Shown here piece by piece: positions 3,369-38,651 of a DNA stretch of 42,469 nt. Source of the stretch: a virus. Lineage: Duplodnaviria; Heunggongvirae; Uroviricota; Caudoviricetes. The DNA lies in IMG/VR virus record IMGVR_UViG_2541047705_000011; one strand, 5' to 3'. The notes beneath the pieces were generated by a model. The model was not told the DNA's origin. It worked only from the letters and a program-made list of their open reading frames with translations, and ran no database searches. How positions within the stretch are numbered: the stretch's first letter is position 1; every line of letters starts with the position of its first letter. The position numbers were made by a program, and so were the translations under genes.

Positions 3369-3395
3369 CCCGCAATATTTTGCGGGCTTTTTTTT
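3369..3395 (+). terminator. Hairpin plus T8, canonical only in plus orientation, at tailspike 3' end
   Basis: CCCGCAA-TATT-TTGCGGG then C and T8; the T-run overlaps the tailspike stop codon; no plus-strand CDS upstream. Confidence 0.45.
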
Positions 3396-6300
3396 AACGT
3401 TCTTCCAGAGACTGAACCCGCTCTTTTATCTTATCCATTTCTCTGCGCTGCCATGCTGCCTCGATATAGAATAAGAGATCAGGTCTGACCCCCCATCTAG
3501 ATCCTGCTGGCGTTATTTCAACGCGCTCAATGATGTCTTCCATTACCATCACTGGATTATCATCCTCATCAACAATGATGCTCCCGTCATTATCAGTCAG
3601 CGGCATTTCCCTTTGGCCAGTAATGACGTCATCATATACTGCGGGATAATCGTCATAGCAAAGAAAGGCATAGCGGCATGTTGTGCTTTCTTCTTCCATG
3701 AGTCCGTGAGAAATAAGAACATCACGAAGTTGCTGCGCGATTACACCATGATGTATCCTCGCCCCTTCTTCCCCCTTTATAGCGACAGCGTTCAGCCATT
3801 TATAAGCGATATACCTGACGTCACCCCAGGCATCCAGCAATGCTTCGTCAGGAGAGACCGGCTCTGTCTTTAATGTTCCGTCACTGGTAACCACAGGATT
3901 GGAGCCAAGATAAACTGTCGAGAACCTGTTTCCCGGACCACCAAGAGCATTTACATTATCAAGATAAGGTTTAACATCTCCGTTCTCAAAAAGATGTTCG
4001 AGTGCGTTATATACCGCGCGACGTGGAGTACTGCTTCCGGAACCATGCAACGTTATCATTGCACCATCTGCTGAAGACGTTGTTTCACCTCCGCTAACGA
4101 TTAATCTCTGAGCGGTAACATCATCAGACGGTACTTTCTTCGCAATAATGGCGTAATTACCCTCAAGTTTGACTTCCGCGCGAACTTGTCCTGATGTACC
4201 TGCATGGACAGTCAGTGACTGGACGGCAACATCATCTGTGAAATCAACGGGTACAGGAACCGTCCTCACGCCTGACGTCGACATAAAAGTAGGAAGCGTT
4301 CTGTTAGGAGTGGCTCCGTAGACAAAATCCCTTGAAACAAATTCTTCCTGTTTAATTTTCACCCTGAAACAATACAAATCAGCCGGGTGACCATCGTGAA
4401 CATAAGGATATTTTCTGTTGTTATCCCCTATGCTCCATGGGTTTAGAAAGTCTTCCCCACCGAAAATGTAGTACAGCCAGTTGTCTTTGATACAAACTGA
4501 ACCAACACCAACCGCAGAGTTAACTATTCCGCCCTGATAAATCTGATCAGTAACATTAACCCACTCTACATTATCCAGACTCCACTCATTGACGTTAACT
4601 CTGGTCATAAATGTTCTTGGATAATTTCCTGCATAACGGTTATCAGGTTCTCCTCCTTCCCACTCACCAAATGCGCGCTCACTGCCAAAAATAATCAGCT
4701 CATCGCCAACTTTGGCAAAAGGAAGGTTTGAGTGATGAACATTATTTGGGAAGCGAAGAGAATTCCATGATGTACCTAAATCAGAGCTTCTGTGCAATGA
4801 ACTACCGGGTTGAGTACTTAATGTCCCCCTGGTCGTCAGATACAGAATGCCATCATAATATTTTACACATGGCTCAGATGCATTCGCCTCATATTCTGCA
4901 GGTATGCGTCTGCGAACAAAGCTACCAGGAGAACCGAAAGCATCAGAGAAATAGAGTATCCCAAGCTCGCGTGGACCAATATCACCATTATGGTAGCCAA
5001 CAGCAAAACTGTTATCGCTAATCGTCGCAAAACTGTGAATCTCAGTAACAGGAGTGCTTCCGTCAACAAAAGAAGGAATAGTTCCAAGACTGGTTTTTCT
5101 CCATGGTGACGAGTGAAATGATGTACCAAAACTCCAGTATCTACCCTCGTTATTCTGATCCACATCCTGGGTATTTTGCGTCGTAACTGTAAAAGTATTT
5201 TTATCAATAACAGTAGTCACCGTCATATTCCCGGTAACACCTGTAACACCAGAGTTTGAGAAGTTGACAAAATCACCAGCAAATAATCCGTGATCAGTAA
5301 TGCGAATATAAGCGACTTGCTGATTTGCTGCTTTCGTTATACCACCATAAACGCGAAGGCTGCGACTCATTGGGCGATCCCACAACTCTGCAACCTGCAG
5401 TTTATTTCCGCTCACGGTCCGCGTCTCAATTACAGCAAAAAGGCGATTTCTGACAACCCCCATACTCATGCAGTGATAGTTAACTGTGGGATAGTTTTCA
5501 TGTAAATCTGTAAGCCATTCCGGCGTTGTCCAGGTCTTCCCGTCATCTCCTGAGCGAACCCATGCAACATGGAGGTTATTTACACCATGGCGGTCTCCAG
5601 CCATAAAAGGCGCATAGATGACATTGTCATATACAAACGTTTTATCCTGCGTCCAGGCGTTGTACCACGGTGTATCTGTAATTTTAAATAACTCTCCCTG
5701 GATAAAATCTTCAGAAGCATAAAAAAGAGGCTGGCCCGGTATTCTCTCAAATAAAAAACGAGCATTTTTAAATCGACTGACATCCGGAAGAGTTGATACT
5801 TTAAAAGTAAGCCCTAATCCGTCAATTTTATAACCTGGAGATGAGGCTTCAAGGCACGCGCTTATTGCAGTGGAATCGTCATTTATACCATCACCAACAG
5901 CTCCAAAATCTTTGGGGCTAATAGCATCACGCATTTTATCCTGGAACGTTCGGTACACAGCCCCAGAACCATACTGAATAAACCAACCAAAACCACCAAC
6001 AACCCCGGCGATTGCAGCATCGACATAATTACGCATTGAGCGATTATTTACAGCGTCCTGCTCAAATGATGGATCTGCAAGGTTAGAAATTTTGTTTTGC
6101 TTTGCATCGTAATATTTTGCAAGCAAAGATGGTTTCATCAATGCACGTCTGAACCACCCAAAACATTGCTGGATCAGCATCGTCAGGTAGTCAAAGGCAT
6201 CTTCATGCACTTCGGGGAAAAATTTTCCCTGATTGCGAAGGTCTGTCTCCTGCACTACATCAAGCACACGATCTATCGTAATTCGCCATCCAGTAGCAAG

Positions 6301-6513
6301 CGGAGACGGAAGAACCACAGAACCGCCACTATAAGTGCCCGCCCCAGTTACCGTATAACCGGTATCCAGAACCAATTCTGTTACGTTCCCGTTCAGGTCA
6401 GACACCTGAACAACCAGGTCTGATTTTCTGAAAATTCGAAAAGTATACGGAAACGATGTCGTAACGCCGTTACCGGTGTATTCGTTGTGGTCAACTTCGG
6501 TTGAGACCGTCAT
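3394..6513 (-). CDS. Tailspike, endosialidase-like (endo-N-acetylneuraminidase) with C-terminal intramolecular chaperone
   Basis: 1039 aa; N-terminus has T7 tail-fibre-like pattern YxGxG..F..F..LVV; two Asp-boxes SGDDGKTW and SSDLGTSW; C-terminal SDGTLK and HHGVIAQQLRDV resemble the autocleaving chaperone of endosialidases. Confidence 0.7.
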   Translation of the reverse strand: MTVSTEVDHNEYTGNGVTTSFPYTFRIFRKSDLVVQVSDLNGNVTELVLDTGYTVTGAGTYSGGSVVLPSPLATGWRITIDRVLDVVQETDLRNQGKFFPEVHEDAFDYLTMLIQQCFGWFRRALMKPSLLAKYYDAKQNKISNLADPSFEQDAVNNRSMRNYVDAAIAGVVGGFGWFIQYGSGAVYRTFQDKMRDAISPKDFGAVGDGINDDSTAISACLEASSPGYKIDGLGLTFKVSTLPDVSRFKNARFLFERIPGQPLFYASEDFIQGELFKITDTPWYNAWTQDKTFVYDNVIYAPFMAGDRHGVNNLHVAWVRSGDDGKTWTTPEWLTDLHENYPTVNYHCMSMGVVRNRLFAVIETRTVSGNKLQVAELWDRPMSRSLRVYGGITKAANQQVAYIRITDHGLFAGDFVNFSNSGVTGVTGNMTVTTVIDKNTFTVTTQNTQDVDQNNEGRYWSFGTSFHSSPWRKTSLGTIPSFVDGSTPVTEIHSFATISDNSFAVGYHNGDIGPRELGILYFSDAFGSPGSFVRRRIPAEYEANASEPCVKYYDGILYLTTRGTLSTQPGSSLHRSSDLGTSWNSLRFPNNVHHSNLPFAKVGDELIIFGSERAFGEWEGGEPDNRYAGNYPRTFMTRVNVNEWSLDNVEWVNVTDQIYQGGIVNSAVGVGSVCIKDNWLYYIFGGEDFLNPWSIGDNNRKYPYVHDGHPADLYCFRVKIKQEEFVSRDFVYGATPNRTLPTFMSTSGVRTVPVPVDFTDDVAVQSLTVHAGTSGQVRAEVKLEGNYAIIAKKVPSDDVTAQRLIVSGGETTSSADGAMITLHGSGSSTPRRAVYNALEHLFENGDVKPYLDNVNALGGPGNRFSTVYLGSNPVVTSDGTLKTEPVSPDEALLDAWGDVRYIAYKWLNAVAIKGEEGARIHHGVIAQQLRDVLISHGLMEEESTTCRYAFLCYDDYPAVYDDVITGQREMPLTDNDGSIIVDEDDNPVMVMEDIIERVEITPAGSRWGVRPDLLFYIEAAWQRREMDKIKERVQSLEER

Positions 6514-6708: not shown

Positions 6709-6966
6709 ATGCAGCAGTATCACTATCCACTGGAAGACGGATTTACCGAAAGGATTCACACGCCGGGAGGCGTCAGGTCACTGGTGGAGGGATCGCACTT
6801 GATGAAATTACTCCGGGATCTCGATAAGGATGGATTTAATGTCGATGGCCCACTTGCCGAACTGACTGCACTGATTAACTACGTCACCAGCTCACAGATG
6901 TCTATGCAGGATCTGCAAACACATCTCGACTATTGTGCCGAACAATTACGAAAACAAACCCGGTAA
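6709..6966 (+). CDS. Small antirepressor-like protein (homologous to C-terminal domain of the BRO antirepressor at 8113-8805)
   Basis: 85 aa from ATG 6709 (track ORF starts at TTG 6691); RBS GGAGAAG; aligns with the last ~60 aa of the BRO protein. Confidence 0.6.
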   Translation: MQQYHYPLEDGFTERIHTPGGVRSLVEGSHLMKLLRDLDKDGFNVDGPLAELTALINYVTSSQMSMQDLQTHLDYCAEQLRKQTR

Positions 6967-6972
6967 ATTTAA

Positions 6973-6990
6973 AGGCCGCAAGAGCGGCCT
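6973..6990 (-). terminator. Hairpin terminator between convergent genes
   Basis: AGGCCGC-AAGA-GCGGCCT; T-rich on minus strand downstream; overlaps the 6989-7717 stop codon. Confidence 0.45.
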
Positions 6991-7717
6991 ATCGTTTCGC
7001 TTTGTGCTCGTCCCAGCACGTTTTGCACCATGCCATTAAGCCGTCCGCATTTTGATTATTAGGGTAAAAGCTGGTCCGTTTTCTGCGGACATTACAAATT
7101 GGGCACCACTTCATATGGCGTGTATTCTTTGGACCATCGAGACACCTTGCACACCACTTAGTCAATCCATCTGGATTTTTTGACGATTTCCGGAATTTGT
7201 CATATGGAAGGTTTATTCTGCATCGCAAACACTGCTTGCGGCCACTTGAAACTCTGTTAGCTGATTCTTCTTTTGGCGGCGATACAGAAGGTATTCTTGC
7301 TGGCTCTGATACTGCCTGAGGTGCTTTTTTAGATGACTGAGACGATATGTCATCACCAGGGAATCTTCCATGATATGCCGGACGCGTTGACACTCCAGGT
7401 GGAAGCTCAGCTGTAAACGGCTTTGGCTGAATCAGTTGCCTCTCTTTTGCTAACTCCTGCTGTTTATAATATGTCTGGATTACCGCACTATCATAAGCAG
7501 GAGGTACGGAAATATCAGGCGCGTTACCTCCAGTTTTTTGAAACTGAGTAGATGTGTGTTCTATCACCTGTGTACGACTAATCGTTACCTCCCCATCTTC
7601 GGTCTTTATCGTTTTGTTCTGATTAACGACCGTACGATCAGAGATCTTAGTCTTGTTCTGGTTGATAACGTAAATAATCACCGCAACCACACCAACAACT
7701 ATCCAGAAAACTTCCAT
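6989..7717 (-). CDS. Membrane-anchored protein with two C-terminal zinc-ribbon repeats, unknown function
   Basis: N-terminal TM helix, Pro/Ser-rich linker, then CLRC..x22..WCARC and CPIC..x21..WCKTC; RBS GAGGAAAAG. Confidence 0.6.
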   Translation of the reverse strand: MEVFWIVVGVVAVIIYVINQNKTKISDRTVVNQNKTIKTEDGEVTISRTQVIEHTSTQFQKTGGNAPDISVPPAYDSAVIQTYYKQQELAKERQLIQPKPFTAELPPGVSTRPAYHGRFPGDDISSQSSKKAPQAVSEPARIPSVSPPKEESANRVSSGRKQCLRCRINLPYDKFRKSSKNPDGLTKWCARCLDGPKNTRHMKWCPICNVRRKRTSFYPNNQNADGLMAWCKTCWDEHKAKR

Positions 7718-7736
7718 TGCTTTTCCTCACAATAAC

Positions 7737-7753
7737 ATTACCTTAAAGGTAAT
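7737..7753. promoter_or_regulatory. Operator-like palindrome ATTACC-TTAAA-GGTAAT (perfect)
   Basis: 20 nt upstream of the 7717 start codon; possible -35 TTGATC 17 nt from TACCTT on minus strand. Confidence 0.6.
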
Positions 7754-7785
7754 ATCTTGCTTTCAGGTGATCAAGCGTTAAACGC

Positions 7786-7807
7786 AATCAACCAAATACG
7801 GTTGATT
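7786..7807. promoter_or_regulatory. Second-type palindrome AATCAACC-N6-GGTTGATT
   Basis: Perfect 8-bp inverted repeats with 6-bp spacer, between two ATTACC/GGTAAT sites. Confidence 0.4.
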
Positions 7808-7829
7808 TTAATATTTCTTCGCGTTTATC

Positions 7830-7846
7830 ATTACCTTTGCGGTAAA
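7830..7846. promoter_or_regulatory. Operator-like palindrome ATTACC-TTTGC-GGTAAA (11/12 arms)
   Basis: Same motif family; upstream of structured leader and BRO gene. Confidence 0.5.
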
Positions 7847-7864
7847 TTTACATCGCACTCCTCT

Positions 7865-7958
7865 TGTGCCATAGTAATCGGGCACTGGCAAAATCCAGTG
7901 CCGGGATTGGTCTCCCGGATTACTACAGAGGCACATATGCCGCATAAGCGGTTTTTTT
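7865..7958 (+). other. Candidate structured RNA/leader: three-way junction fold followed by short hairpin and T7 run
   Basis: Nested complementarity TGTGCC/GGCACA, GTAATC/GATTAC, GGCACTGG/CCAGTGCC, GGGA/TCCC; then CCGC-ATAA-GCGG plus TTTTTTT; about 155 nt upstream of BRO start. Confidence 0.3.
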
Positions 7959-8112
7959 ATGTGTAAAGCGCACCTATTCTATGGTGGGCTGTGTGGGGGC
8001 ACCGAAAGGTGCGCCGGGTTCCTTTGTAGCCGGTAAGACCAACTCTGCACAGTTCACCACCATCTGATTGGTCTCAGCGGTGGTGATTAACCTAACTACA
8101 AAGGTGATCGCT

Positions 8113-8805
8113 ATGAATACCAAACCTTCCATCTTTTCCTTTGAGTCATCCTGCCAGATCCGTATGTTCATGATTGACGGAGAACCTTGGTTTGTCACCA
8201 AAGATGTGTGCAATGCTTTGAATATTGATGTTACACAAGCGAGAAAACTTGATAAAAAAGGCTGGAACAAAAAGGGGCTGTATTCAATACAGACCCCTGG
8301 TGGAATACAAGAACTATCCATCGTTTCAGAATCAGGTCTCTACATCCTTATTCTGCGTTGCAAAGAGGCAATGACTGAGGGAACGAGAGCATTCAGATTT
8401 CTTGAATGGGTTACAGGTGAGGTTCTTCCTCAGATCCGCCGCACCGGAAGTTACATTAAAAACTCGCTCCCGCAGGAAGAACGCATAAAGATGGTTGCCG
8501 ACCAGGTAGCCAACGCCACGGCGTCAGCAGTAATGCAGGCGATGAAGATAGAGAACAAAACCTACAGTGCCCCACTGAAGCCCGGCTACCGTAGCCTGAT
8601 TCATTCGCCGTCTGGTGTTCTCGGCCTGACGGAGAACTCACTGCTGATGAATCTGCTGAACCAGTTACAGGACGACGGGCACGACGTATCGGGCGCGGCG
8701 GCGGAGCTGACCACCATGTTCTGCTACATCGTCGGTGTGAGCAAATGCCTGCGTGATATCCAGACCCACGCGGAGTACATCAACGACAAGGCAGGGTTCT
8801 TCTGA
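8113..8805 (+). CDS. BRO-N domain antirepressor
   Basis: BRO-N motif FSFESSCQIRMFMIDGEPWFVTKDVCNAL; RBS AAGGTGA; start trimmed to ATG 8113; C-terminal domain homologous to the 6709-6966 protein. Confidence 0.75.
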   Translation: MNTKPSIFSFESSCQIRMFMIDGEPWFVTKDVCNALNIDVTQARKLDKKGWNKKGLYSIQTPGGIQELSIVSESGLYILILRCKEAMTEGTRAFRFLEWVTGEVLPQIRRTGSYIKNSLPQEERIKMVADQVANATASAVMQAMKIENKTYSAPLKPGYRSLIHSPSGVLGLTENSLLMNLLNQLQDDGHDVSGAAAELTTMFCYIVGVSKCLRDIQTHAEYINDKAGFF

Positions 8806-8875
8806 CGGCGGCGGCACAGGGACGTGCCTTTAAATAATTCTGTACAGATTGCAGACTGGGGGTGAATAGCGTACT

Positions 8876-8892
8876 ATTACCTCAAGGGTAAG
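8876..8892. promoter_or_regulatory. Operator-like palindrome ATTACC-TCAAG-GGTAAG
   Basis: 11/12 arm match; 59 nt upstream of the 8951 start. Confidence 0.5.
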
Positions 8893-8950
8893 AAAGCATT
8901 TTTAATCTTCCCTTCAAAACGCGTCCTGTAGCCAAACATGGGAGGACGAA

Positions 8951-9583
8951 ATGAGAACAAATACAACAAGAAAAGCGATGCCATACATTATCCCAGAAGC
9001 AGATTTCGATAGAAAACTGAACATGTCTGAGAAGAACACTAGTCACACCGAAAGCTACTTAGCGAAAGGTGTGGTTGATTTCGTTCTTCCGGGATTCACA
9101 ACACCTTATGGTTATCGCCTTGTAAAATCTTGTAATGGCGATCATTACAGAATGATTACTACCAGCGATACTCCAGAAACGGTGTATGCGGTTAAGTTAA
9201 TCTTTCGGGAAGATATCGTCGAAGCCAAAAGAACATGTACGCAGATCATGGTATGGCGTACGCCTAATGTTATTCATGACCGTGCTGTTCATGGTTTGCC
9301 TCAGATTTTTTTTCAGTTCTTCCTAGAGCAATATGCGATCGTTGTATCTGATGAGCAACAAACAATCGATGGGAGAAGATTCTGGGAAAGAATGATTTCT
9401 TGGGCTATAAACACCCCGGGATATAATGTATACGTTTCAGATGGCTCTGAAGAAGATAGACCTCTTAGCTTCATGACATCATGGGATGATTTCTATAGCC
9501 AGTGGGCTGATTTCTGTTGGGGCAGTGATAAAGATGTGCATACCCACAGACTACTGGTTATAAGCAAAGATAAACTGCATTAA
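8951..9583 (+). CDS. Hypothetical protein (210 aa), accessory/moron gene, no recognisable family
   Basis: ORF track; RBS GGGAGG; AT-rich; flanked by operator-like site upstream and terminator downstream. Confidence 0.6.
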   Translation: MRTNTTRKAMPYIIPEADFDRKLNMSEKNTSHTESYLAKGVVDFVLPGFTTPYGYRLVKSCNGDHYRMITTSDTPETVYAVKLIFREDIVEAKRTCTQIMVWRTPNVIHDRAVHGLPQIFFQFFLEQYAIVVSDEQQTIDGRRFWERMISWAINTPGYNVYVSDGSEEDRPLSFMTSWDDFYSQWADFCWGSDKDVHTHRLLVISKDKLH

Positions 9584-9588
9584 TAGAA

Positions 9589-9609
9589 GCCCGCAGCGCG
9601 GGCTTTTTT
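9589..9609 (+). terminator. Rho-independent terminator
   Basis: GCCCGC-AGC-GCGGGC followed by T6. Confidence 0.75.
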
Positions 9610-9681
9610 GTGGACGAAACAAAAGTCAGTGCTACACTCATTGACGCCACATTGAGGTGGCTTATAGATGGAAATTTCACA

Positions 9682-9843
9682 ATGAAAAAAGCATTTGCTG
9701 CACTGTTCGTTTTGTTGTCTCTGGTAGCTTCAACTCAGGCCTTTGCCGGTCGTTGTCAGCACGACAGCGATACTGCCGCTGACGGCTCCCGCTGCGGTGG
9801 GCGTTCTGCGGATTCCCGCCCGGGTGGCGGTGGCATTCGTTAA
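9682..9843 (+). CDS. Small secreted Gly/Arg-rich peptide (53 aa)
   Basis: Start at MKKAFAALFVLLSLVASTQAFA (signal peptide); putative promoter TTGACG-N16-TATAGA upstream; ORF-track N-terminal extension discarded. Confidence 0.45.
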   Translation: MKKAFAALFVLLSLVASTQAFAGRCQHDSDTAADGSRCGGRSADSRPGGGGIR

Positions 9844-9849
9844 AAACAA

Positions 9850-9865
9850 GGCCGCGAAAGCGGCC
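9850..9865 (-). terminator. Hairpin GGCCGC-GAAA-GCGGCC, terminator for lipoprotein gene (minus), weaker for plus
   Basis: GNRA-type loop; on minus strand followed by TTGTTTTTA. Confidence 0.55.
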
Positions 9866-9866
9866 T

Positions 9867-9878
9867 GTGACATGTCAC
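9867..9878. repeat. Perfect 12-bp palindrome GTGACATGTCAC (copy 1 of 3)
   Basis: Overlaps lipoprotein stop codon; identical copies at 28357-28368 and 30808-30819. Confidence 0.8.
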
Positions 9879-10255
9879 GCAACGCAATTATTACCGCGCC
9901 ATGTAACATTTTTAATAATCTTATCAGCACCAAACTCAACGTAAACAGAGCAACTGAAATGGAGTGTATAACCGCCATCAGTTGTTGCGTATGTGTTTGA
10001 ATATATAGTATTACCAATTAGATTAGACGTAGTATTATACGTTGTGGTTTGTGGTACGTTATAACTACCAGAGCTTGAGTAAACATACACTCTGTTTCCA
10101 TCTGGAGATGTAAGCTCTCCCTGAGGATACCCCCACTGCTGAACCATTGCGTCTATACTCTGCCCGCGCCACGTAAGCATATTTCTTTCAAACTGTGCAA
10201 CTGACTGGCATCCAACGAGAAGCATAAATCCAAAAATCAAAAATACTTTTCTCAT
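9875..10255 (-). CDS. Lipoprotein (126 aa), candidate superinfection-exclusion/moron protein
   Basis: Start MRKVFLIFGFMLLVGC (lipobox); RBS AGGGG; Thr/Ser/Tyr/Asn-rich mature part; IS1 lies 66 bp upstream of its start. Confidence 0.6.
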   Translation of the reverse strand: MRKVFLIFGFMLLVGCQSVAQFERNMLTWRGQSIDAMVQQWGYPQGELTSPDGNRVYVYSSSGSYNVPQTTTYNTTSNLIGNTIYSNTYATTDGGYTLHFSCSVYVEFGADKIIKNVTWRGNNCVA

Positions 10256-10375
10256 AATTACCCCTATCATGGAAAAACAGCACCAATCCACAAATTAACT
10301 AGTTATTTTATTATTCTTCCGGTGATGCTGCCAACTTACTGATTTAGTGTATGATGGTGTTTTTGAGGTGCTCCA

Positions 10376-10651
10376 GTGGCTTCTGTTTCTATCAGCTGTC
10401 CCTCCTGTTCAGCTACTGACGGGGTGGTGCGTAACGGCAAAAGCACCGCCGGACATCAGCGCTATCTCTGCTCTCACTGCCGTAAAACATGGCAACTGCA
10501 GTTCACTTACACCGCTTCTCAACCCGGTACGCACCAGAAAATCATTGATATGGCCATGAATGGCGTTGGATGCCGGGCAACCGCCCGCATTATGGGCGTT
10601 GGCCTCAACACGATTTTACGTCACTTAAAAAACTCAGGCCGCAGTCGGTAA
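10376..10651 (+). CDS. insA: IS1 InsA
   Basis: Sequence recognised as IS1 InsA ([32 protein letters not shown]...). Confidence 0.95.
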
Positions 10652-11073
10652 CCTCGCGCATACAGCCGGGCAGTGACGTCATCGTCTGCGCGGAAATGGA
10701 CGAACAGTGGGGCTATGTCGGGGCTAAATCGCGCCAGCGCTGGCTGTTTTACGCGTATGACAGTCTCCGGAAGACGGTTGTTGCGCACGTATTCGGTGAA
10801 CGCACTATGGCGACGCTGGGGCGTCTTATGAGCCTGCTGTCACCCTTTGACGTGGTGATATGGATGACGGATGGCTGGCCGCTGTATGAATCCCGCCTGA
10901 AGGGAAAGCTGCACGTAATCAGCAAGCGATATACGCAGCGAATTGAGCGGCATAACCTGAATCTGAGGCAGCACCTGGCACGGCTGGGACGGAAGTCGCT
11001 GTCGTTCTCAAAATCGGTGGAGCTGCATGACAAAGTCATCGGGCATTATCTGAACATAAAACACTATCAATAA
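10570..11073 (+). CDS. insB: IS1 InsB reading frame (expressed as InsAB' fusion by -1 frameshift)
   Basis: Sequence recognised as IS1 InsB; slippery TTAAAAAACTC upstream in the InsA frame. Confidence 0.9.
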
Positions 11074-11117
11074 GTTGGAGTCATTACCTATTCTTCCGAA
11101 CAATACAATTCCGAATA

Positions 11118-11240
11118 CTACAAAGCCGAACCATGCCGCTGCACGCAACAGAGATTCCAATTGAAACCCATTTTTATCAAAATGTATGAATAGCATAAAA
11201 ACGCTGCACATATTAGTACAATAAAAGTTATTTGAACCAT
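11118..11240 (-). CDS. Small hydrophobic peptide (40 aa) with strong RBS, candidate membrane peptide
   Basis: AAGGAG 5 nt before ATG, directly after stop of upstream virion gene; MVQITFIVLICAAFLCYSYILIKMGFNWNLCCVQRHGSAL; below the ORF-track size cutoff. Confidence 0.4.
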   Translation of the reverse strand: MVQITFIVLICAAFLCYSYILIKMGFNWNLCCVQRHGSAL

Positions 11241-11251
11241 CATATCTCCTT

Positions 11252-13726
11252 TTATTGCGGAGTGACATCCTGTGGTCGCCACCAGTATGTCTGGTTAAAC
11301 TCTTTCTTCGAACGTTGCTCCATTTTACGCAAATAGCCTGGTGAAAAATACTCCTGCATCTGGTTAAAGATCATGTGATCGAGAGCCGCCTTCAAGTACC
11401 AGAGATTCGCACCAGGCATCAAACCTTTCCCCAGCTTCACCAGATCACCACCAGTCTGCTCACTCTTCCCTTCCACAGCATTTAACGGTATGCCCTGAGC
11501 AATCTTCACTACGTCATCAACCAGACCAGCTACCGGGCCAAGCATCGACGCCAGCGCGCCGCTTCCGTACCTAGTGTGATCTGACAATAAAAAGTCACCG
11601 TAAAGGCCAAGACCACCACCTTTCAGTAGAGCACCAAGCCAGAATTTTGCGGCATCTTCTCCTGTCATCTCTCGAGAATTACGACCAGACGCAAGGTCGT
11701 TAAGTTGCTGCGACAAAGCGCCAAGAATGGTCGTACTGGCAATAAACGTCGCAATATATGCCGCACGCCCACCAGCAGACGGCATACCCATAGCGCGTGA
11801 CCAGTGACGCATAACAACCGAGATAGGGAACGATTTAAACAGGAAAACACTTCTCGTTAATTCACCTTTCCATGTTCCACGCTGAATACCAGAACCGGTT
11901 ATCAGTTGCTCACGTGCTCCCGGTGTAATAACAGCCATATCAACTTCTTCAGTTACGGCACCGAGCAGTTTACGCATTGCCTCAAATTTCACGCGTTCAG
12001 GCTCACCAAGATGTTTAACTGCTGAATCAGGGATACGCATAATGCTTTCCGGTGTCAGCATCGTATTATTACCGTTCCCCCAGTCCTCCTGTTTCGCCAG
12101 CTTCCATACGCTCCAGTCTGTGTCAGTAATCCCTTTGCTTTTCAGGATACGAAAATCAGAGTCATCGAGGCTACGAAGGTCTGGTGTCCGTGACACTACT
12201 TCTCCCAGGCTTCCCATCATGGTTACGCCATAGGCGCGCTTGTGCGCATCTGACCATGCTGTAAGCCCACTGGCACGCATTACCGCCGTTGCCGCCCAAC
12301 GAGACACTGACGGCCCCATATTATCCATCGCCCAGCGGTTAACGCTGCCAAGTAGAGATTCCATCGCCAGACCAGCGCGGCGCGCCCGCGCAAGTTCTGT
12401 ACGGTTCGTTGGGTCCATAGCTTCAAGCTGGTTGCGGAATAACTGGTTCATTGGAAGGTTGGTAACCTTCGCAGACAGATACATGGTTCCAAGATCAGAG
12501 AACGATGACAGCAACGCGGATCCGAGTCTGCTGGCAACCAGCCAGTTGCGGATATTGTCAGACCATCGCGCGATGTGCGGATTCGCTACAGGCTGTGTCT
12601 TTCCGGAAATAAAGTTGTACAGATTCTCTGTGTTGTTCGCCAGCCGCTCGACTTTACCGGTTTTACTCGGGTTAGCTGTTGCCGTTTCTGCCTTCACCTG
12701 ATCAAGAAGAGAGCGGAAAACATGATCGGGGTTTGGGCCATATGTTTCCACCAGTGCAATATCTTTACTGATACCTTCCAGGTGACCGACCATGATTTCC
12801 CATAGAGAGCGATCGCCATAAAGTTGCTGATATTGCAGATAGGAATCTGCATCTTTGAAATGTATCTGTCGTGATGCATTACCACGGTTAGCACGTGCGC
12901 CGGAAATTCGCATTCCGGTATCAGTAAGCTTATTCAGCCCACCAGTAGCGATCGTGTTATAAGCCTCTCCAAGAAATGAAGACAACTCGGCATCGTTCAT
13001 CAGTTGTCCATCGGCTCGGATATAATATTTGCGATCCAGCTTACCTATAACATCGCTAACCCACTTATCCTTTGATACTGCCCCAACCTTTTCCATAGAA
13101 TGATGTTGAGGGATCCCCCAGTTTTCGAGATAGCCAATGTCCCCACCAGCATCATTAAACCGGCGGCGCAGCAGCTCTGTAACTTCTCTCCACGCCTTAG
13201 CACCGTTTCTTGCTTTAGCATTGCCAGTATTTTGCCCCCGCATTTCATATACCAGGTCACGTACGCCCGCTTCATCTTCAAACAGACCAAAAAAGCGAGG
13301 ATCAACTGCTTCGAATGCCTCCTGCAATTGACTCAATGCATAATCACGAGTGGCTTTTGTTCTGGACTCAACAGAGAGGAAATTCGATTTACCGTCTGCA
13401 TTAAAAGCAATAGTACGGTTAAGAGCGCCAAGTTTCCCATCAGCCCCTTGATAGCTATTGATAAATTTATCCAATCTCTGACGCGCGGCTATAGTGAGAG
13501 CCACACGACGTTTCTTTAATGCCGCTTCTCGCTGTAATTCTTCAGATGCCAATTGTGCTGCTCGATATAGCCGCTCTGATTCGGAAAGTTGTCGCCACGA
13601 CATAGGGTCATCACGAGCAATGGAGCGCATATTTCGATAAATGCGGTCTTCAATGTTCTGTATTTCTCGCGCCGTTAACATGCGCTGCGCCGCCTGCTGA
13701 ACCGCTTGTATACATTCCTGTCTCAT
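11252..13726 (-). CDS. Large internal virion/ejection protein (824 aa)
   Basis: ORF track; last large gene of virion operon, in the position of podovirus injection proteins. Confidence 0.6.
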   Translation of the reverse strand: MRQECIQAVQQAAQRMLTAREIQNIEDRIYRNMRSIARDDPMSWRQLSESERLYRAAQLASEELQREAALKKRRVALTIAARQRLDKFINSYQGADGKLGALNRTIAFNADGKSNFLSVESRTKATRDYALSQLQEAFEAVDPRFFGLFEDEAGVRDLVYEMRGQNTGNAKARNGAKAWREVTELLRRRFNDAGGDIGYLENWGIPQHHSMEKVGAVSKDKWVSDVIGKLDRKYYIRADGQLMNDAELSSFLGEAYNTIATGGLNKLTDTGMRISGARANRGNASRQIHFKDADSYLQYQQLYGDRSLWEIMVGHLEGISKDIALVETYGPNPDHVFRSLLDQVKAETATANPSKTGKVERLANNTENLYNFISGKTQPVANPHIARWSDNIRNWLVASRLGSALLSSFSDLGTMYLSAKVTNLPMNQLFRNQLEAMDPTNRTELARARRAGLAMESLLGSVNRWAMDNMGPSVSRWAATAVMRASGLTAWSDAHKRAYGVTMMGSLGEVVSRTPDLRSLDDSDFRILKSKGITDTDWSVWKLAKQEDWGNGNNTMLTPESIMRIPDSAVKHLGEPERVKFEAMRKLLGAVTEEVDMAVITPGAREQLITGSGIQRGTWKGELTRSVFLFKSFPISVVMRHWSRAMGMPSAGGRAAYIATFIASTTILGALSQQLNDLASGRNSREMTGEDAAKFWLGALLKGGGLGLYGDFLLSDHTRYGSGALASMLGPVAGLVDDVVKIAQGIPLNAVEGKSEQTGGDLVKLGKGLMPGANLWYLKAALDHMIFNQMQEYFSPGYLRKMEQRSKKEFNQTYWWRPQDVTPQ

Positions 13727-25040: not shown

Positions 25041-25333
25041 TCCTGTTCACTGGCCTCTTTGGCCATCTTCAAATACTGTTCAGGGCAATGCGCCATAACG
25101 CGCTGAAACAGTTCCAGCGCCAGATTGCGTTGCCCCTCATTAAATGCCATTGCCATAGCATCCATCGGTGAGATAGCGGAAAACACACGGCCTTTCTCCA
25201 GCACCGACCAGACAACGCGACGCCCCTGTTCACTGCTCATGACAAAGCGAATGTCATCAATTTCACGCTGTGCCATGTCACGTTGCTTACGGGCGTTTTC
25301 TTCTTTCAGTTGATCGTCTTCATAATCTGTCAT
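25037..25333 (-). CDS. Small head-assembly-module protein (98 aa)
   Basis: ORF track; overlaps portal stop and scaffold start. Confidence 0.45.
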   Translation of the reverse strand: MTDYEDDQLKEENARKQRDMAQREIDDIRFVMSSEQGRRVVWSVLEKGRVFSAISPMDAMAMAFNEGQRNLALELFQRVMAHCPEQYLKMAKEASEQE

Positions 25334-27009
25334 TGTGATAGCCCACCCTGACCACTAACTGCATTCGCCATAGCTGACAACACACTCGGATCCGAAGTTT
25401 TAGCTTCGCTTAGCGTCTTGGCCCCCTGTGCCGCCGCCATCCCCATCGCCATCATTTGTTGCTGCTGTTGTTGCTGTGCCCGTTGCTGGCGAGCCTGCTC
25501 AACCTGTTCCTGCGGAACAATGACGGTTGGAGACACTCCGGACATATCAGCGAATGCATCGATCGCCTGATCAACGTTGAGTTTGTCGAGAGCTTCTGGT
25601 TTCGCTTGCGCAAGTTGACCAATGAAGTTAACCGTGGACGCCAGACTGGACAGGCCGATAGACTTCTGCGCCTGAGCCATGACGGAAATGTATTCGACCT
25701 TCAGGGGCATACCTTCCATCGCGTCAGGCGGTGGCGGCAGCATGTTTTTACGCACCATCATCGAGAAAGCGCGGTCAATGAGAGGATTAAGACATTCGTC
25801 GTTCAGACGCTCCAGAACCGGCCCCAACATCAGAAGTTTTTCTTCTTTCATTTCGATCACCGCTTCAACAGGCATCGAGCGGGTATTGATGTTCTGCAAC
25901 ATCATGAACAGATCGACAAAGTAGGCGCTGTTAATGATTTGACGGGTGTCCTGAATGTCTGCCACCAAATCTGCTGTACTGGGGTTAACCAGATAAGCAG
26001 GCCTGAAACCATCCTGACCAGTAATCTGATCGATATACGTGATGTCGCCAGGAAGAAGGGAGGCACGCTGATTCTTGAGGGAAGTCGGAGCAACCATCGG
26101 CGGATTGGTGGCTTTATCAATCAACTGCGACTTGCGCTTCTGGAGAAGCTGCAATGCCTTAACAGGTCCAAGCGCCAGCATACCCGGGCATGATGATCCA
26201 TAAACATCTTCGCCGTTAACTTCCCAGCGCGGAGCCATAATTGGAAACTCATCGAATCCGGACTCACGCAACAACTTGTCGTTATCGCCACCAACCTCGT
26301 AATAAACCGATTTGAATGGCTTGTTCTTGCTATCCAGCTTCGATGTATCGCGGTCAATGTTCGGGTAAACCGAATGCATCACTTCAATCCACTTCTCGTA
26401 GGTGCCGCTTTCCCACATGCTTTTTACGGATTCGCTGACGTTATTTAGTCCGAACTCCTGAACAAGCTGACGAACAGTCATAGAGAACTTGCGAAAACAG
26501 GTGTCCACACTGCCACGAGGTGAGTTAGCCAGGTAGTAACTTCCTATCGGGAATGGCATTGTACGAATGATGTCCTCGTCATCCTCCAGCACCGCCATTG
26601 CGCCAGTGCTGTATGTGCCGAGGCTTCCGTATAACTGCGGCAGCGACTGATAGAGATTCGACTTATTGAACATATCGTTCATGCGGTTCTGCACCGCCTC
26701 AAGCCACAACTTAACAGGGCCATAATCCATCATTTCAGGATCTGGCGTAGCCAGGCGAAACCACGGACGCGCGGGGCTTGTGATGCCTGACATCATGCCG
26801 CTGGCGAGAGTGCGCGCCGCCATAGTCCCGGTCGAATCAATAATGCGTGTATTGCGTCGATCGTTACGGTTGACCTCAGAAGTCAGAAAGCGGGAACCAC
26901 GCGGGTTGATGTAATCACTCAACTCGCGCCAGTGCGGCTCGAACGACTGACGCTCGCTTTCAAGTTGTGCGAACTGTTTGTTCAATCGCTCTTTAGTTGT
27001 TTCCGCCAT
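25330..27009 (-). CDS. Portal protein
   Basis: 559 aa; Gln-rich C-terminal tail (QQRAQQQQQQQMMAMGMAAAQ) like podovirus portals; RBS GGAG. Confidence 0.75.
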   Translation of the reverse strand: MAETTKERLNKQFAQLESERQSFEPHWRELSDYINPRGSRFLTSEVNRNDRRNTRIIDSTGTMAARTLASGMMSGITSPARPWFRLATPDPEMMDYGPVKLWLEAVQNRMNDMFNKSNLYQSLPQLYGSLGTYSTGAMAVLEDDEDIIRTMPFPIGSYYLANSPRGSVDTCFRKFSMTVRQLVQEFGLNNVSESVKSMWESGTYEKWIEVMHSVYPNIDRDTSKLDSKNKPFKSVYYEVGGDNDKLLRESGFDEFPIMAPRWEVNGEDVYGSSCPGMLALGPVKALQLLQKRKSQLIDKATNPPMVAPTSLKNQRASLLPGDITYIDQITGQDGFRPAYLVNPSTADLVADIQDTRQIINSAYFVDLFMMLQNINTRSMPVEAVIEMKEEKLLMLGPVLERLNDECLNPLIDRAFSMMVRKNMLPPPPDAMEGMPLKVEYISVMAQAQKSIGLSSLASTVNFIGQLAQAKPEALDKLNVDQAIDAFADMSGVSPTVIVPQEQVEQARQQRAQQQQQQQMMAMGMAAAQGAKTLSEAKTSDPSVLSAMANAVSGQGGLSQ

Positions 27010-27657: not shown

Positions 27658-27734
27658 GTGGCATTAGCTCAGTCGGACAGAGCAACCGCCTTCTAAGCGG
27701 TTGGTCGCAGGTTCGAATCCTGCATGCCACGCCA
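27658..27734 (+). tRNA. Phage-encoded tRNA-Arg (anticodon UCU)
   Basis: 77-nt cloverleaf: acceptor GTGGCAT/ATGCCAC, D-stem GCTC/GAGC, anticodon stem ACCGC/GCGGT with loop CTTCTAA, T-arm GCAGG-TTCGAAT-CCTGC, discriminator G, encoded CCA. Confidence 0.9.
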
Positions 27735-28442: not shown

Positions 28443-29918
28443 TTAAGCATAGGGATCGTAATCTGTGATGGCCTTGCCTTGCTGGTTCTGCTGCCCGGGA
28501 ATTCGCAGACGCTTCGACACAGGGAACGCAAACGTCAGCAGTAGCGCATCGCCTTTACCCGGCGAACGCCCAAGCCGCTCCTTGATATCCTCCTTCGGTT
28601 CGATAACGATTTTACCGTCCACGCGAACTTTGTACTCTGCCGCCGACAGGTCGTCTGCAGTTTCCTGGTCATCCAGCATGCCGCCCAGCCTCAGCCATGT
28701 CTTACATGAGTTGAACATCTCCCCACGCTTGTTAAGCATCTGCGGGTCAGTGGACGCACCGCCGAACGGAACAAGTTGCCATGTGCGCCCCCAGCCGTCA
28801 CCGATTGACTTCAGACCAGTTCCGTAACCGAAGTCGATGAACACTGCGTCAGCCTGGTACTGGTCTTCAAAGTCAGCGATACGCTTCGCCATAATCAGAT
28901 CGTCAGTGGTCTTGTTGCCAGTCCATAGCACCTTACTGTGCAGCCCCTGCCGCAGGTATATCACAGCGTCATCAACGCCGGAGTACGCCGGGTCAACGCC
29001 GATTATCACCGGAGCATGTGCAACCTGCGCAGCGGTTACCACCCGTTTCATTGCCTCGTCAGTAAGACCGGTAGGGATAAACTGCAATTCAGATGCATCA
29101 GGGAATATGCCGCGCACACGGATTTTAACGAAGTCGCTGTCTTCCCCGTAGTCATCAACCCATTTCTGCAACTGCTGTTTGTTAGTGCCTTCCACCGTCC
29201 GGCTGTCAATCTGCGCACACTTCCAGCGGTGTTTGTACTTGCGGAAACATTCACGGAAACGCCCGGTGTTACGCGTCGGGTTCCCGAACGCCACCCAGAT
29301 GATTTCGGTGTCTTCGTCCGTAAGCGCACCCTCAGCAACTTCCCACACCAGATCCGCAATGTTCGACGCTTCATCGAATACCACGATGATGCGTTTGCGC
29401 TCGTTGTGTAGTCCGGCGAATGCCTCAGTGTTGTGCTCAGACCAGGGGATTGCGTCAGCTCGCCACCGCTTGTCGTGCCCAGGATCATTGCTGTACATCG
29501 CAGTAGCGGTACAGGTAAACCAGTCTTTCGTGATAGCAAGGTTCGACCACTTGATAATTTCCGGCCAGGTCTTCGTTCGTAGCTGGTTGTCGGTGTTGGC
29601 GGTCACCACGACCTTACAATCCTCGCAAGTGGACATGCCCCAGTTGATCAGCATTGAGATGAATGCGGATTTACCAATACCGTGACCAGAAGCGCGTGCC
29701 AGCATAAGCGGCTGATAGCGCGTCTCTGGATTCTGCAGGTGATCACGTATCTCTCGGAACGCATCAGCCTGCCACTGACGTGGGCCGGTAGCATGTGCCA
29801 GTTCAGTACCCTCTTCCCCCCACGGGAACGCATAGAGGGCATAGCCAAGCGGATCGTGAGTGAACCCTGCAATATCCTCGATTAACTGCTCTTCAGGAGA
29901 TAACGCTGTATCTGTCAC
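28443..29918 (-). CDS. Terminase large subunit
   Basis: 491 aa; Walker A ASGHGIGKS near N-terminus; nuclease-type C-terminal half; follows small subunit. Confidence 0.85.
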   Translation of the reverse strand: MTDTALSPEEQLIEDIAGFTHDPLGYALYAFPWGEEGTELAHATGPRQWQADAFREIRDHLQNPETRYQPLMLARASGHGIGKSAFISMLINWGMSTCEDCKVVVTANTDNQLRTKTWPEIIKWSNLAITKDWFTCTATAMYSNDPGHDKRWRADAIPWSEHNTEAFAGLHNERKRIIVVFDEASNIADLVWEVAEGALTDEDTEIIWVAFGNPTRNTGRFRECFRKYKHRWKCAQIDSRTVEGTNKQQLQKWVDDYGEDSDFVKIRVRGIFPDASELQFIPTGLTDEAMKRVVTAAQVAHAPVIIGVDPAYSGVDDAVIYLRQGLHSKVLWTGNKTTDDLIMAKRIADFEDQYQADAVFIDFGYGTGLKSIGDGWGRTWQLVPFGGASTDPQMLNKRGEMFNSCKTWLRLGGMLDDQETADDLSAAEYKVRVDGKIVIEPKEDIKERLGRSPGKGDALLLTFAFPVSKRLRIPGQQNQQGKAITDYDPYA

Positions 29919-30819: not shown

Positions 30820-31157
30820 ACTATTAATTTCGTTTCATGCCAGCCTTTGGTCACCCAGCATTGCGAGTCACCATTACACGGGCATGAATTAACTGGAACT
30901 CTCTCGCCGCACTTACCGCAACGTTTTCTGCTGATCGATTTTATACGCCCGCGCACGCGTGCATCATCCTGGCGGATCAGTAACGCTATATACTCACCAA
31001 ATTCGTAAGGTGCACGCCCGGGGCGACGCGTGGCGCAGTTCCGCTCCAGCATTTCAATTTCCTGAGCATCAAGCACAATTTCCAGCTTACGCACACCAGA
31101 TGCAGCTTGTCTGGCTCTCTGAGCGGCTTTGCGCTCTGCTGCTGATTTAGCCATCAA
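30816..31157 (-). CDS. Small basic protein with N-terminal RHH-like segment and C-terminal Cys cluster (zinc-ribbon-like)
   Basis: 113 aa; AERKAAQRARQAASGVRKLEIVLDAQEIEMLE then CGKCGERVPVNSCPCNGDSQC. Confidence 0.5.
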   Translation of the reverse strand: MMAKSAAERKAAQRARQAASGVRKLEIVLDAQEIEMLERNCATRRPGRAPYEFGEYIALLIRQDDARVRGRIKSISRKRCGKCGERVPVNSCPCNGDSQCWVTKGWHETKLIV

Positions 31158-31428
31158 TATTCACCTTTATCGCGAACACCTTTACCGGTTTATCTCCGAA
31201 GTGCGGATGTGTGATTGTCTTGATTTCATATCCACCATACGGAACATCAATTCTGCGGCTGGAATCGTCGCGCTTCGGATATCCCTTCGTGATAATCAGG
31301 CGGTCATACTCGCGGAACATAATTCGCTTATTCCAGTAGTCATTACACAGGCGATACTCTTCCGTTTTCTCTCCGCGAATCATGGCATCGAAGTATTCAC
31401 CTTTGACGGCAAGTTGCAGGTTAGCCAC
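31147..31428 (-). CDS. DUF3850/ASCH-like small protein
   Basis: 93 aa; family assignment recalled from sequence pattern, not searched. Confidence 0.45.
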   Translation of the reverse strand: MANLQLAVKGEYFDAMIRGEKTEEYRLCNDYWNKRIMFREYDRLIITKGYPKRDDSSRRIDVPYGGYEIKTITHPHFGDKPVKVFAIKVNIDG

Positions 31429-31705
31429 GACCTTCCTCCTTTGGCTTGTGAATTTGTATCGTCATGCCGCTTTGAGTGGTGACTACAACGACAGAACCAG
31501 GCTTAAGGCTGTTAAGATTGAATGCTTCGTAAAACGAATCCAAGGCCAGCGCTTTTTTATTCTTCCGGTTCCACCAACGCCATCCCTTGCTACAGGCTAC
31601 ACTGACAATCCACTGTCCACTCCTGTAAGCCATATAAAACCAGATGAGCAAAACCTGAAGGAATGCTATCCAGTAAATAATCGTATATTTAGCGAAGGAG
31701 TCCAT
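31421..31705 (-). CDS. Small membrane protein (94 aa)
   Basis: Start trimmed to ATG 31705 (MDSFAKYTIIYWIAFLQVLLIWFYMAY); ATGA overlap with upstream stop. Confidence 0.5.
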   Translation of the reverse strand: MDSFAKYTIIYWIAFLQVLLIWFYMAYRSGQWIVSVACSKGWRWWNRKNKKALALDSFYEAFNLNSLKPGSVVVVTTQSGMTIQIHKPKEEGRG

Positions 31706-32592
31706 CACTTCACCTCCTGCGGCGGTTCTGGTAGCGGCATCCAGAACAAGGCGTTCCCTAACCACGATAAAGTGCCGTCGCTCAACTCCACGTATTCCCC
31801 TTGTACCTGTCCTGCCATATACTCGCCGTGCTTTGAATAAATTAAAATCCAATCATCTTGAGGGGGCATTCGCTCACTACAGCTTATCCAACCATCCGGA
31901 GTTACCGGATAGTTGCCAGCCAGTCTACACAAAACAGTCTTAACCGCCTCAATACGGTCATCATCGCAACTTTCCAGCGTATCTATGCGATCGAGCATGA
32001 TGATGGCGTTATCAATATCAGGATTGCCGGTCCACTCATTACCGCGATTGGATTCGGCAGCCTGGTTGCCGCGTACTGGTTGATTCTCGGCTTTACCCTG
32101 TCTGTCGTCGCTGCATGAATGCCCTTCCAGCCAGACCAGTGCTTGTCGCATGAAATACGCAATATGCTTGCCGTGGTAATCGTCTTCATCGATGTGAAAA
32201 GCGATACTGCGGATATATTCAATTGCGTTTTCAATGGCCTCCGGCGTTATCGGAGTTGGTCCATCGAATTCGGGCATGTCAGGACCTTTTCTGATAGCTT
32301 TAGCCAGCTCCAGCGGGTCATCGTAAAGCCAGTCGCCAGTTTGTGGGTGATTTGCTTCTGCAAGCTGCGCAGCCCATTCAAGACCATCTTTTTGACCTTG
32401 GAGATAATCAAGCGGCAACTCTTCATGATTACTTGCAGGTTCTGCACTATCAGCTTCGCGCCGCTTCTGTAGCTCTGCTGCCATCGCTCTCACGACTTCA
32501 ACTGGTGCCCTTGCAGCAAACTCTATGTTGGTGATTAGCTCATTAAGATATTGCTCGCCTGGATACTGTTTCTTATCGGTTATAGTGGTCAT
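31705..32592 (-). CDS. DUF551-like C-terminal domain protein
   Basis: Start trimmed to ATG 32592 (MTTITDKK), adjacent to upstream stop; C-terminus WISCSERMPP..WLGNALFWMPLPEPP. Confidence 0.5.
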   Translation of the reverse strand: MTTITDKKQYPGEQYLNELITNIEFAARAPVEVVRAMAAELQKRREADSAEPASNHEELPLDYLQGQKDGLEWAAQLAEANHPQTGDWLYDDPLELAKAIRKGPDMPEFDGPTPITPEAIENAIEYIRSIAFHIDEDDYHGKHIAYFMRQALVWLEGHSCSDDRQGKAENQPVRGNQAAESNRGNEWTGNPDIDNAIIMLDRIDTLESCDDDRIEAVKTVLCRLAGNYPVTPDGWISCSERMPPQDDWILIYSKHGEYMAGQVQGEYVELSDGTLSWLGNALFWMPLPEPPQEVK

Positions 32593-32593
32593 A

Positions 32594-33184
32594 TCACTCT
32601 CCTTTGATGCGAATGCCAGCGGTGCGTGGCACATTAACTTCCACGATGCGCACAGTTGGTTTGTACATCTCAATCGCTGTCAGCCAGTCAGCGCCAGTCA
32701 TGCGCTTTTCTGCATCGCCATTAGTCCAATTAACCGGTACACCAATAGCCTTCATCGCGATTTCTATTTCCCCGGCAATGGCGCTTTTCCCGCAACCAGT
32801 AAAACCAGATACAACGACCAGAACTTCACCTTTGGCTGGTTTTATTTCCCGCGCTTCCAGTTCTGCTATGCGCTTACTTCCATCCGAGATAACACCTTCG
32901 TAATACTCACGCTGCTCGTTGAGTTTTGATTTTGCTTTCTCAAGCTCAACTCTCAGCTTCCCTACCGTTAGCGCAATTTCCTCGTTCTCCTGGTCGCGGG
33001 ATTTGATGTATTGCTGGTTCCTTTCCAGTTCATCCAGCAGTGCCAGCGCGATATCTGGCGAAAAGTGCTTCATAAAATCGTTAAGCGCATTAATTCGCTG
33101 ATCGAAGGGCATTACAGGTGCTTCACCAGCAATTTTTGTTTTTTCAGCGATTTCACGAAGCTTTTGATAATCAATCTTGCTCAC
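32594..33184 (-). CDS. Hypothetical coiled-coil protein with Walker-A-like GFTGCGKS motif
   Basis: 196 aa; N-terminal coiled coil; C-terminal VVVSGFTGCGKSAIAG. Confidence 0.45.
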   Translation of the reverse strand: MSKIDYQKLREIAEKTKIAGEAPVMPFDQRINALNDFMKHFSPDIALALLDELERNQQYIKSRDQENEEIALTVGKLRVELEKAKSKLNEQREYYEGVISDGSKRIAELEAREIKPAKGEVLVVVSGFTGCGKSAIAGEIEIAMKAIGVPVNWTNGDAEKRMTGADWLTAIEMYKPTVRIVEVNVPRTAGIRIKGE

Positions 33185-33681
33185 TGGTTGCCTCCTTTGC
33201 GAAGCTCAGCGGCGAAGGCTACTGCGTGATCATGATGTTCAAGCGTGTATGCACACTCCGCAAACATCTCCACGCCCTGCGCCCGTACTTCAGCCAGGAA
33301 AGCATCGGTGGCTGGAGTTTCGCTGTGGTGCAGGGCATCATTAATAATCATCGCAGCAACTCCGGCCTGCCCTGCATCCGTGACCGACACATGCTCAAGA
33401 GTTACGGCCATTGCGTGTTTCAGCCCCGCATTCTCCGCCGCCAGCGCCGAAAACGTCTCGTGTGCCAACTTAACAGCTGCATCAGCCTGCTTAATTGACT
33501 CAATCGCTTTCTGCTGGTCTTCGGCCAGCGCATTAGCACGCGCCAGTTGCACTTCCAGTTGCGTTGCCAAATCGCTGATCAGCTTTGCCACACTACGCAT
33601 ATCAACTGCACCACATTCTGCTTTCAGTTCCGAAGCCATCTCATGCCCGGCGGAAACTAACCCTTTGATATTACTTTCCAT
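33181..33681 (-). CDS. Hypothetical protein (166 aa)
   Basis: ORF track; Ala-rich helical; overlaps downstream start. Confidence 0.45.
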   Translation of the reverse strand: MESNIKGLVSAGHEMASELKAECGAVDMRSVAKLISDLATQLEVQLARANALAEDQQKAIESIKQADAAVKLAHETFSALAAENAGLKHAMAVTLEHVSVTDAGQAGVAAMIINDALHHSETPATDAFLAEVRAQGVEMFAECAYTLEHHDHAVAFAAELRKGGNQ

Positions 33682-35802: not shown

Positions 35803-35817
35803 GATTAATCTCCGCTA

Positions 35818-38642: not shown

Positions 38643-38651
38643 GGAGAAAAA

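Follow-up and report, generated by a model that had tools for sequence, protein, structure and literature searches.

A complete IS1A-type insertion in the accessory lipoprotein cassette of a Uetakevirus prophage of Escherichia coli, with a candidate hybrid promoter oriented towards the lipoprotein gene

The window analyzed here, a stretch of 42,469 nucleotides of viral DNA (IMG/VR record IMGVR_UViG_2541047705_000011), carries a copy of the insertion sequence IS1 between the end of a phage structural operon and a lipoprotein gene, which raises the question of how the element came to lie there and what it may do to the genes around it. In the preliminary description, an intact IS1 with a 9-bp target duplication was placed in an accessory island, and an influence on lipoprotein expression or polarity was proposed. 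The evidence gathered below points with high confidence to a single autonomous IS1 of the IS1A type, which arrived by simple insertion in an AT-rich spacer of a prophage accessory cassette and may have rewired the expression of the lipoprotein gene. The element itself is an ordinary, already known IS1, and its possible regulatory effect belongs to a known class, that of IS1 hybrid promoters.

The left end of the window, from position 1 to about 1162, is chromosomal (yfgH and yfgI) and is present in 5,422 of 5,426 complete E. coli genomes. The prophage adjoins yfgI/yfgH on this side, with a boundary near 1163 as judged by comparison with phage vB_EcoP_ZX5 (ZX5; genus Uetakevirus), and it extends to the end of the window, collinear with ZX5 in blocks that are 96-99.8% identical and together span most of 1163-42469. 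The window ends exactly at the start codon of the integrase (region 41219-42469), and the second attachment site lies beyond it. On the basis of these alignments, the host element is identified as a phiV10/epsilon15-like (Uetakevirus) prophage of E. coli next to yfgI. Identity to ZX5 is about 97-99.8% over most of the lysis, tailspike, structural, packaging, and integrase modules, and ZX5 has the same lipoprotein cassette, whereas it lacks IS1, a 242-aa gene (6989-7717), and several segments of the early region. The latter (31154-33524, 34779-36076, and 37746-39671), for which no ZX5 match was found, probably represent a mosaic replication/recombination module typical of temperate phages. The 242-aa gene (minus strand, phrog_6762) encodes a C-terminal zinc-finger region with weak similarity to the endonuclease VII, HNH, and Lar-like families; its segment (about 6966-7825) is absent from ZX5, making it another variable accessory gene. 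In addition, a tRNA-Arg gene (anticodon TCT; 27658-27734, plus strand) is present inside the prophage, between the genes for the large terminase (28443-29918) and a collar/portal-like protein (25330-27009). It appears to be phage-borne and shared, as the surrounding block aligns with ZX5.

On the minus strand, the structural genes end with the gene of an 824-aa virion structural protein (11252..13726; phrog_684), a homologue of phiV10 p20, which is followed by the region of small open reading frames (ORFs), IS1, the lipoprotein gene, and a terminator-like hairpin. Past the hairpin, the plus strand carries genes for a 53-aa membrane-associated protein, a 210-aa protein, and a Bro-N antirepressor, after which come the 242-aa gene on the minus strand, the tailspike gene (3394-6513), and the lysis genes. 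The statement that IS1 lies downstream of the last virion gene thus holds for the 824-aa gene as the last one of the long structural operon, but not for virion genes in general, since the tailspike gene is located farther on. The placement in an accessory island was well founded: the end of the virion gene is common to 314 complete genomes, but the segment with the small ORF and the lipoprotein gene to only 34 of these, and both phiV10 and phiv142-3 have other genes at this position. In phiV10, a different gene for a small membrane protein is found here, and a lipoprotein gene is lacking.

The lipoprotein gene (9875..10255, minus strand) is an accessory (moron) gene encoding 126 aa, with a signal peptide that ends in the lipobox LVGC. 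From the tip of IS1 at 10321 to the A of its start codon at 10255, the spacing is 66 bp, exactly as previously given. Searches of Pfam, NCBIfam, and PADLOC returned no match for this protein; its only PHROG family, phrog_3716, has no assigned function, and its one sequence match in the PDB, to a surface-layer protein, covers just a short repeat motif. Prediction with AlphaFold from the single sequence gave a model with a mean pLDDT of 46, which was set aside as unusable. The lipoprotein sequence is identical in IS-free contigs. Directly 3' of the gene, an intrinsic-terminator-like hairpin (9849..9866, minus strand) is common to the lipoprotein gene and the convergent 53-aa gene, and it probably stops transcripts arriving from either side; a terminator is annotated at the corresponding position of phiV10. 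The hairpin is G+C-rich (AGGCCGC-TTTC-GCGGCCT) and is also found in phiv142-3.

With regard to the element, every feature that had been listed for a complete IS1 with a 9-bp duplication at 10312-11097 was found. IS1 is exactly 768 bp long (10321..11088, with the ins genes on the plus strand) and is enclosed by two copies of TATTCTTCC. Both inverted repeats are present in its terminal 23 bp: the left one (IRL; 10321..10343, plus strand) reads GGTGATGCTGCCAACTTACTGAT, and comparison of the ends revealed that the right one (IRR; 11066..11088, minus strand) is an imperfect inverted copy of it, in agreement at 18 of 23 positions. A single occurrence of the IRL 23-mer was found in the window, versus none in 100 shuffles. 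Moreover, a second or partial copy of IS1, which would be a sign of a composite transposon or a rearrangement, was sought throughout the window and none was found.

The coding content is also complete. The insA gene (10376..10651, plus strand) begins with GTG and encodes a 91-aa repressor with a zinc ribbon and a helix-turn-helix, and the insB frame (10570..11073, plus strand; 167 aa), which represents the DDE catalytic part of the transposase, overlaps insA in the -1 phase. Both frames are open, and the A6C slippery motif AAAAAAC (10627..10633, plus strand) lies upstream of the insA stop, in line with the earlier reading; a conceptual -1 shift at this motif produces the InsAB' fusion of 232 aa. 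The NCBIfam profile of IS1 transposase (NF033558) matched this fusion with 243 bits (cut-off 100) over positions 1-199 of 199. The Pfam families Zn_ribbon_InsA, HTH_Tnp_IS1, and DDE_Tnp_IS1 were each matched over their full length, PF03811 and PF12759 in InsA and PF03400 in the insB frame (positions 1-131 of 131, E = 5.9e-78). A promoter-like site overlapping IRL (CTGCCA-16-TATGAT; 10328..10355, plus strand; 9 of 12 matches) is in the expected place of the weak insA promoter. It has been reported that IS1 has a length of 768 bp, imperfect inverted repeats, insA/insB, an A6C frameshift site, and a 232-aa InsAB', and that its own weak promoter, PIS1, partly overlaps IRL (PMC12428005). All defining features of IS1 that can be assessed here at the level of the sequence are present, and at that level its membership in IS1 is beyond doubt.

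Comparison with IS1A of E. coli K-12 MG1655 revealed a single difference in 768 bases (767 identical), a C for A at window position 10582. The two elements have the same length, inverted repeats, insA, insB frame, A6C site, and InsAB', and differ in this one base and in location, which is a prophage cassette here. The substitution is synonymous in insA and, within the insB frame, falls 5' of the frameshift site. It is therefore never translated as insB, so that both InsA and the 232-aa InsAB' are identical to the K-12 IS1A proteins. Enterobacterial plasmids commonly carry copies with 100% identity to the present element, which are assigned to the IS1A family in the plasmid annotations. Considering the identity to IS1A in coding and terminal sequences, together with the finding that strains retaining IS1A still transpose (PMC12428005), this copy is very likely mobile.

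The insertion event can be reconstructed from the target site. A perfect direct repeat is formed by the two copies of the 9-mer on the left (10312..10320) and right (11089..11097) of the element, and the probability that 9 bp would be identical by chance is about 4e-6. The typical target-site duplication of IS1 is 9 bp long. The repeat proved to be a true target duplication in that IS-free alleles contain one copy of the 9-mer at this spot. When 10321-11097 is removed, the resulting sequence is found uninterrupted in E. coli FDAARGOS_1301, with 1 mismatch in 824 bases. The empty site with a single 9-mer could be detected in 34 complete E. coli genomes, with a flank identity of about 99.5-99.9%, and ZX5, a viable phage, also carries the uninterrupted site with a single 9-mer: its alignment blocks break at window 10321/11089, and the 10-base overlap between them (ZX5 38987-38996) holds the 9-mer. 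The comparison with IS1-free copies of the prophage, which had been suggested as a check, therefore showed contiguous flanks, implying that no deletion or rearrangement came with the insertion. Phage phiv142-3 was rejected as an additional empty-site control, as it has a different downstream gene and is informative for the small ORF only. IS1 prefers AT-rich DNA, and the composition of the target fits this preference: the surrounding 50 bp have a G+C content of 26%, versus 48.8% for the window.

The empty allele also serves as the reference for transcription. Between the structural operon and the lipoprotein gene, this allele contains no terminator-like site, and directly upstream of the lipoprotein gene it contains no promoter-like site with at least 9 of 12 matches; the nearest promoter-like site, ATGTCA-18-TATGAT, precedes the small ORF. 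With the element in place, the ins genes of IS1 are antisense to transcription running from the structural operon to the lipoprotein gene, and a candidate hybrid promoter that faces the lipoprotein gene is found across the left junction (10305..10334, minus strand; TTGGCA-18-TAAAAT; 10 of 12 consensus matches). The -35 hexamer TTGGCA is located within IRL (10334..10329) and the -10 hexamer TAAAAT in resident DNA (10310..10305), the 18-nt spacer between them includes the duplicated 9-mer, and the start codon of the lipoprotein gene is 50 nt 3' of the -10. This is the best promoter-like site in 2.1 kb, and a scan of the empty allele revealed no equivalent. The scan, which scores consensus match only, found 6 sites in the region versus 2.7 expected. 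The proposed effect on lipoprotein expression, which was read from the DNA, can be sharpened by this geometry.

The layout known for hybrid promoters, with an outward -35, a -10 at a distance of 16-18 bp, and a downstream gene in the same orientation, is present at this junction. An outward -35 in the inverted repeat of IS1 has been documented, from which hybrid promoters arise if a -10 is suitably spaced in the adjoining DNA (PMC8764528, citing Prentki et al. 1986). In E. coli ST131, IS1 upstream of afaA raised transcription by about 7 log2, and other IS1 insertions lowered that of osmB or left that of ugd unchanged, the outcome being dependent on spacing (PMC8764528). The site described here resembles the Prentki and afaA promoters in having an outward -35-like hexamer in the inverted repeat at a distance of 8 nt from the IS1 tip, a -10-like hexamer just past the 9-bp duplication, and a gene in the same orientation, but it differs from them in being a candidate derived from sequence, in its spacer of 18 nt, and in that the gene encodes a phage accessory lipoprotein. 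Its weak points are the suboptimal spacer and the lack of an extended -10. On the other strand, the outward -35 overlaps the -35 of the element's own promoter-like site (10328-10355), and InsA, which binds the inverted repeats, could occlude the outward -35 and dampen both promoters. Thus, the functionality of the candidate promoter is proposed tentatively, at less than an even chance. Most likely, from the arrangement of these signals, an IS1 hybrid promoter would now drive the lipoprotein gene in place of late read-through.

According to the preferred reading, IS1 transposed into the spacer of the accessory cassette of the Uetakevirus prophage, which is integrated next to yfgI in an E. coli lineage, and duplicated the 9-bp target TATTCTTCC. 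It would thereby separate the lipoprotein gene from transcription coming from the structural operon and the small-ORF region, and the outward -35 TTGGCA of IRL, placed 18 bp from the resident TAAAAT, would drive the lipoprotein gene. The last two residues of one small ORF (frame 0, described below) would give way to 26 residues encoded by IS1, and the expression of virion and lysis genes would be unimpaired. If the hybrid promoter works, this would be one more case of activation of a neighbouring gene by IS1 and would involve no new principle; the insertion also flags the prophage lipoprotein cassette as a place of possibly rewired expression.

An alternative that deserves serious weight, although its probability falls short of one half, is that IS1 is a neutral passenger, brought to this site by its preference for AT-rich DNA alone, with a coincidental promoter geometry and an unchanged or irrelevant expression of a lipoprotein that is produced mainly during lytic growth. 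The low G+C content of the target region agrees with this possibility, as do the dependence of the scan on consensus match, with 6 sites versus 2.7 expected, and the insertion upstream of ugd that had no effect on transcription (PMC8764528). On the other hand, when insertions were considered across the IS-free window, the hybrid geometry would arise in only 0.7% of all positions and orientations and in 3.2% of the AT-rich ones; the site also points towards a gene that starts 66 bp downstream, and the occupied allele has persisted long enough to be found in several samples.

A second alternative is that IS1 is polar here, blocking read-through from the operon, so that the loss of upstream transcription could instead lower lipoprotein expression. 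IS1 is polar in both orientations, as established from early gal and lac insertion mutants. The lipoprotein gene is on the strand of the operon and has the same terminator, and the empty allele, with neither a terminator-like site before the gene nor a promoter-like site of at least 9 of 12 matches directly upstream of it, would be compatible with expression from the operon. A weak terminator-like hairpin within IS1 (10461..10447, minus strand; antisense to insA) would be met by transcripts entering the element from the structural operon, the number of such hairpins in the region being no higher than expected by chance. The decrease of osmB transcription after an upstream IS1 insertion (PMC8764528) provides a precedent for such silencing. 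However, the new candidate hybrid promoter, with its 10 of 12 matches, could compensate or overcompensate for the lost read-through, and late transcription of the phage may be antiterminated. A fall in lipoprotein expression is therefore regarded as unlikely, although its probability is appreciable.

A further extension of the promoter hypothesis is that the insertion was selected since the left end of IS1 gives a constitutive hybrid promoter, through which the lipoprotein, whose expression would otherwise be limited to that of the late operon, would be expressed in the lysogen and confer a surface-related trait on the host. If this were true, the lineage would have gained, for example, superinfection exclusion or serum resistance. 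The uncommon geometry is no proof of selection, and the probability assigned to this scenario is low.

Effects on the phage itself appear limited. Particle production is unlikely to be affected by IS1, because the late operon of the IS-free relatives already stops at the hairpin at 9849-9866. The tailspike and lysis genes lie beyond genes of the opposite strand, and polarity of IS1 should therefore reach no essential gene. Harm to virion or lysis genes was considered and rejected, as none of them is downstream of IS1 in the same transcription unit. Likewise, the idea that the added 777 bp would exceed the packaging limit was rejected: the part of the prophage within the window has a length of about 41.3 kb, and the sequenced related phages among the matches range from 38.7 to 44.0 kb.

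The distribution of the occupied allele bears on both its age and its reality. In none of the 5,426 complete E. coli genomes is this site occupied by IS1, and a search for the left junction among one-genome-per-species references, in which E. coli is represented by a single genome, returned no match. By contrast with this absence, an NCBI draft assembly (GCA_000456505.1, scaffold KE699135.1) contains window 6875-13255 exactly. The left junction was also found in a Logan contig of run ERR4162073, which stops 30 nt inside IRL, and ERZ27306899, a metagenome contig from ENA, covers the right junction with 671 bp of flank and the terminal 118 bp of IS1, at one mismatch. Its occurrence in one draft assembly, one Logan run, and one ENA contig indicates that the occupied allele is real and not a one-off, and the contrast between zero occupied complete genomes and 34 near-identical empty sites supports the earlier view of a recent insertion. 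The allele is thus a genuine and recent one that is restricted to a lineage. As a lineage marker, the insertion is useful for the E. coli clone in which it occurs, with little import beyond annotation.

It might be argued that a multicopy repeat was misplaced during assembly or scaffolding of a draft genome, as the sole long record of the occupied allele is a draft scaffold and no complete genome is occupied. Such an artefact is highly improbable in view of the perfect 9-bp duplication, the exact contiguity of the flanks in empty alleles, and the independent observation of the left junction in the Logan contig and the right junction in the ENA contig. IS1 causes adjacent deletions and forms composite transposons, and a scar of an IS1-mediated deletion, inversion, or composite transposon was accordingly considered in place of a simple insertion; this was rejected with near certainty by the empty-site comparison, given the single IS1 copy in the window, the intact direct duplication, and the precise joining of the flanks in 34 genomes and in phage ZX5.

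The insertion also touches the region between the virion gene and IS1. Two short minus-strand ORFs in different frames are found in this 220-bp gap, and the previous statement that IS1 lies downstream of a small peptide ORF applies to one of them only. The frame-1 ORF (11118..11240; 40 aa), which has one hydrophobic helix and a good ribosome-binding site, stops 20 nt short of the duplication and is left intact by IS1; its position is that of the phiV10 p21 membrane protein gene. The second ORF, in frame 0, enters IS1. In IS-free alleles it ends with GRIIK and a stop codon, and on 117 contigs it has been called as a gene encoding 62 aa (P0001). The target 9-mer is located in its last codons and encodes G-R-I; its duplication therefore allows the frame to continue into IRR, yielding a chimeric ORF of 86 aa (11008..11268) in which the terminal IK is replaced by 26 IS1-encoded residues. 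Possibly, no translation of the frame-0 ORF takes place.

Nevertheless, two relatives suggest that the tail of frame 0 is coding. In one of them, a metagenome allele, a deletion of 26 nt fuses the start of frame 1 with the tail of frame 0 into one 44-aa ORF (P0002/L010); in the other, phiv142-3, a 58-aa ORF encoding two hydrophobic helices occupies a single frame at this position. A small membrane-protein gene (11118-11268, minus strand) seems to be split in the common E. coli allele, with the start and helix 1 in frame 1 and the tail and helix 2 in frame 0; its counterparts in relatives are at 1501-1635 of L010 and about 2440-2575 of L009. The split gene could represent a pseudogene, two separate peptides, or a case of recoding, and a -1 shift at G_TTT_TTA (T5 run, 11197-11201) would give a 53-aa protein with two helices.
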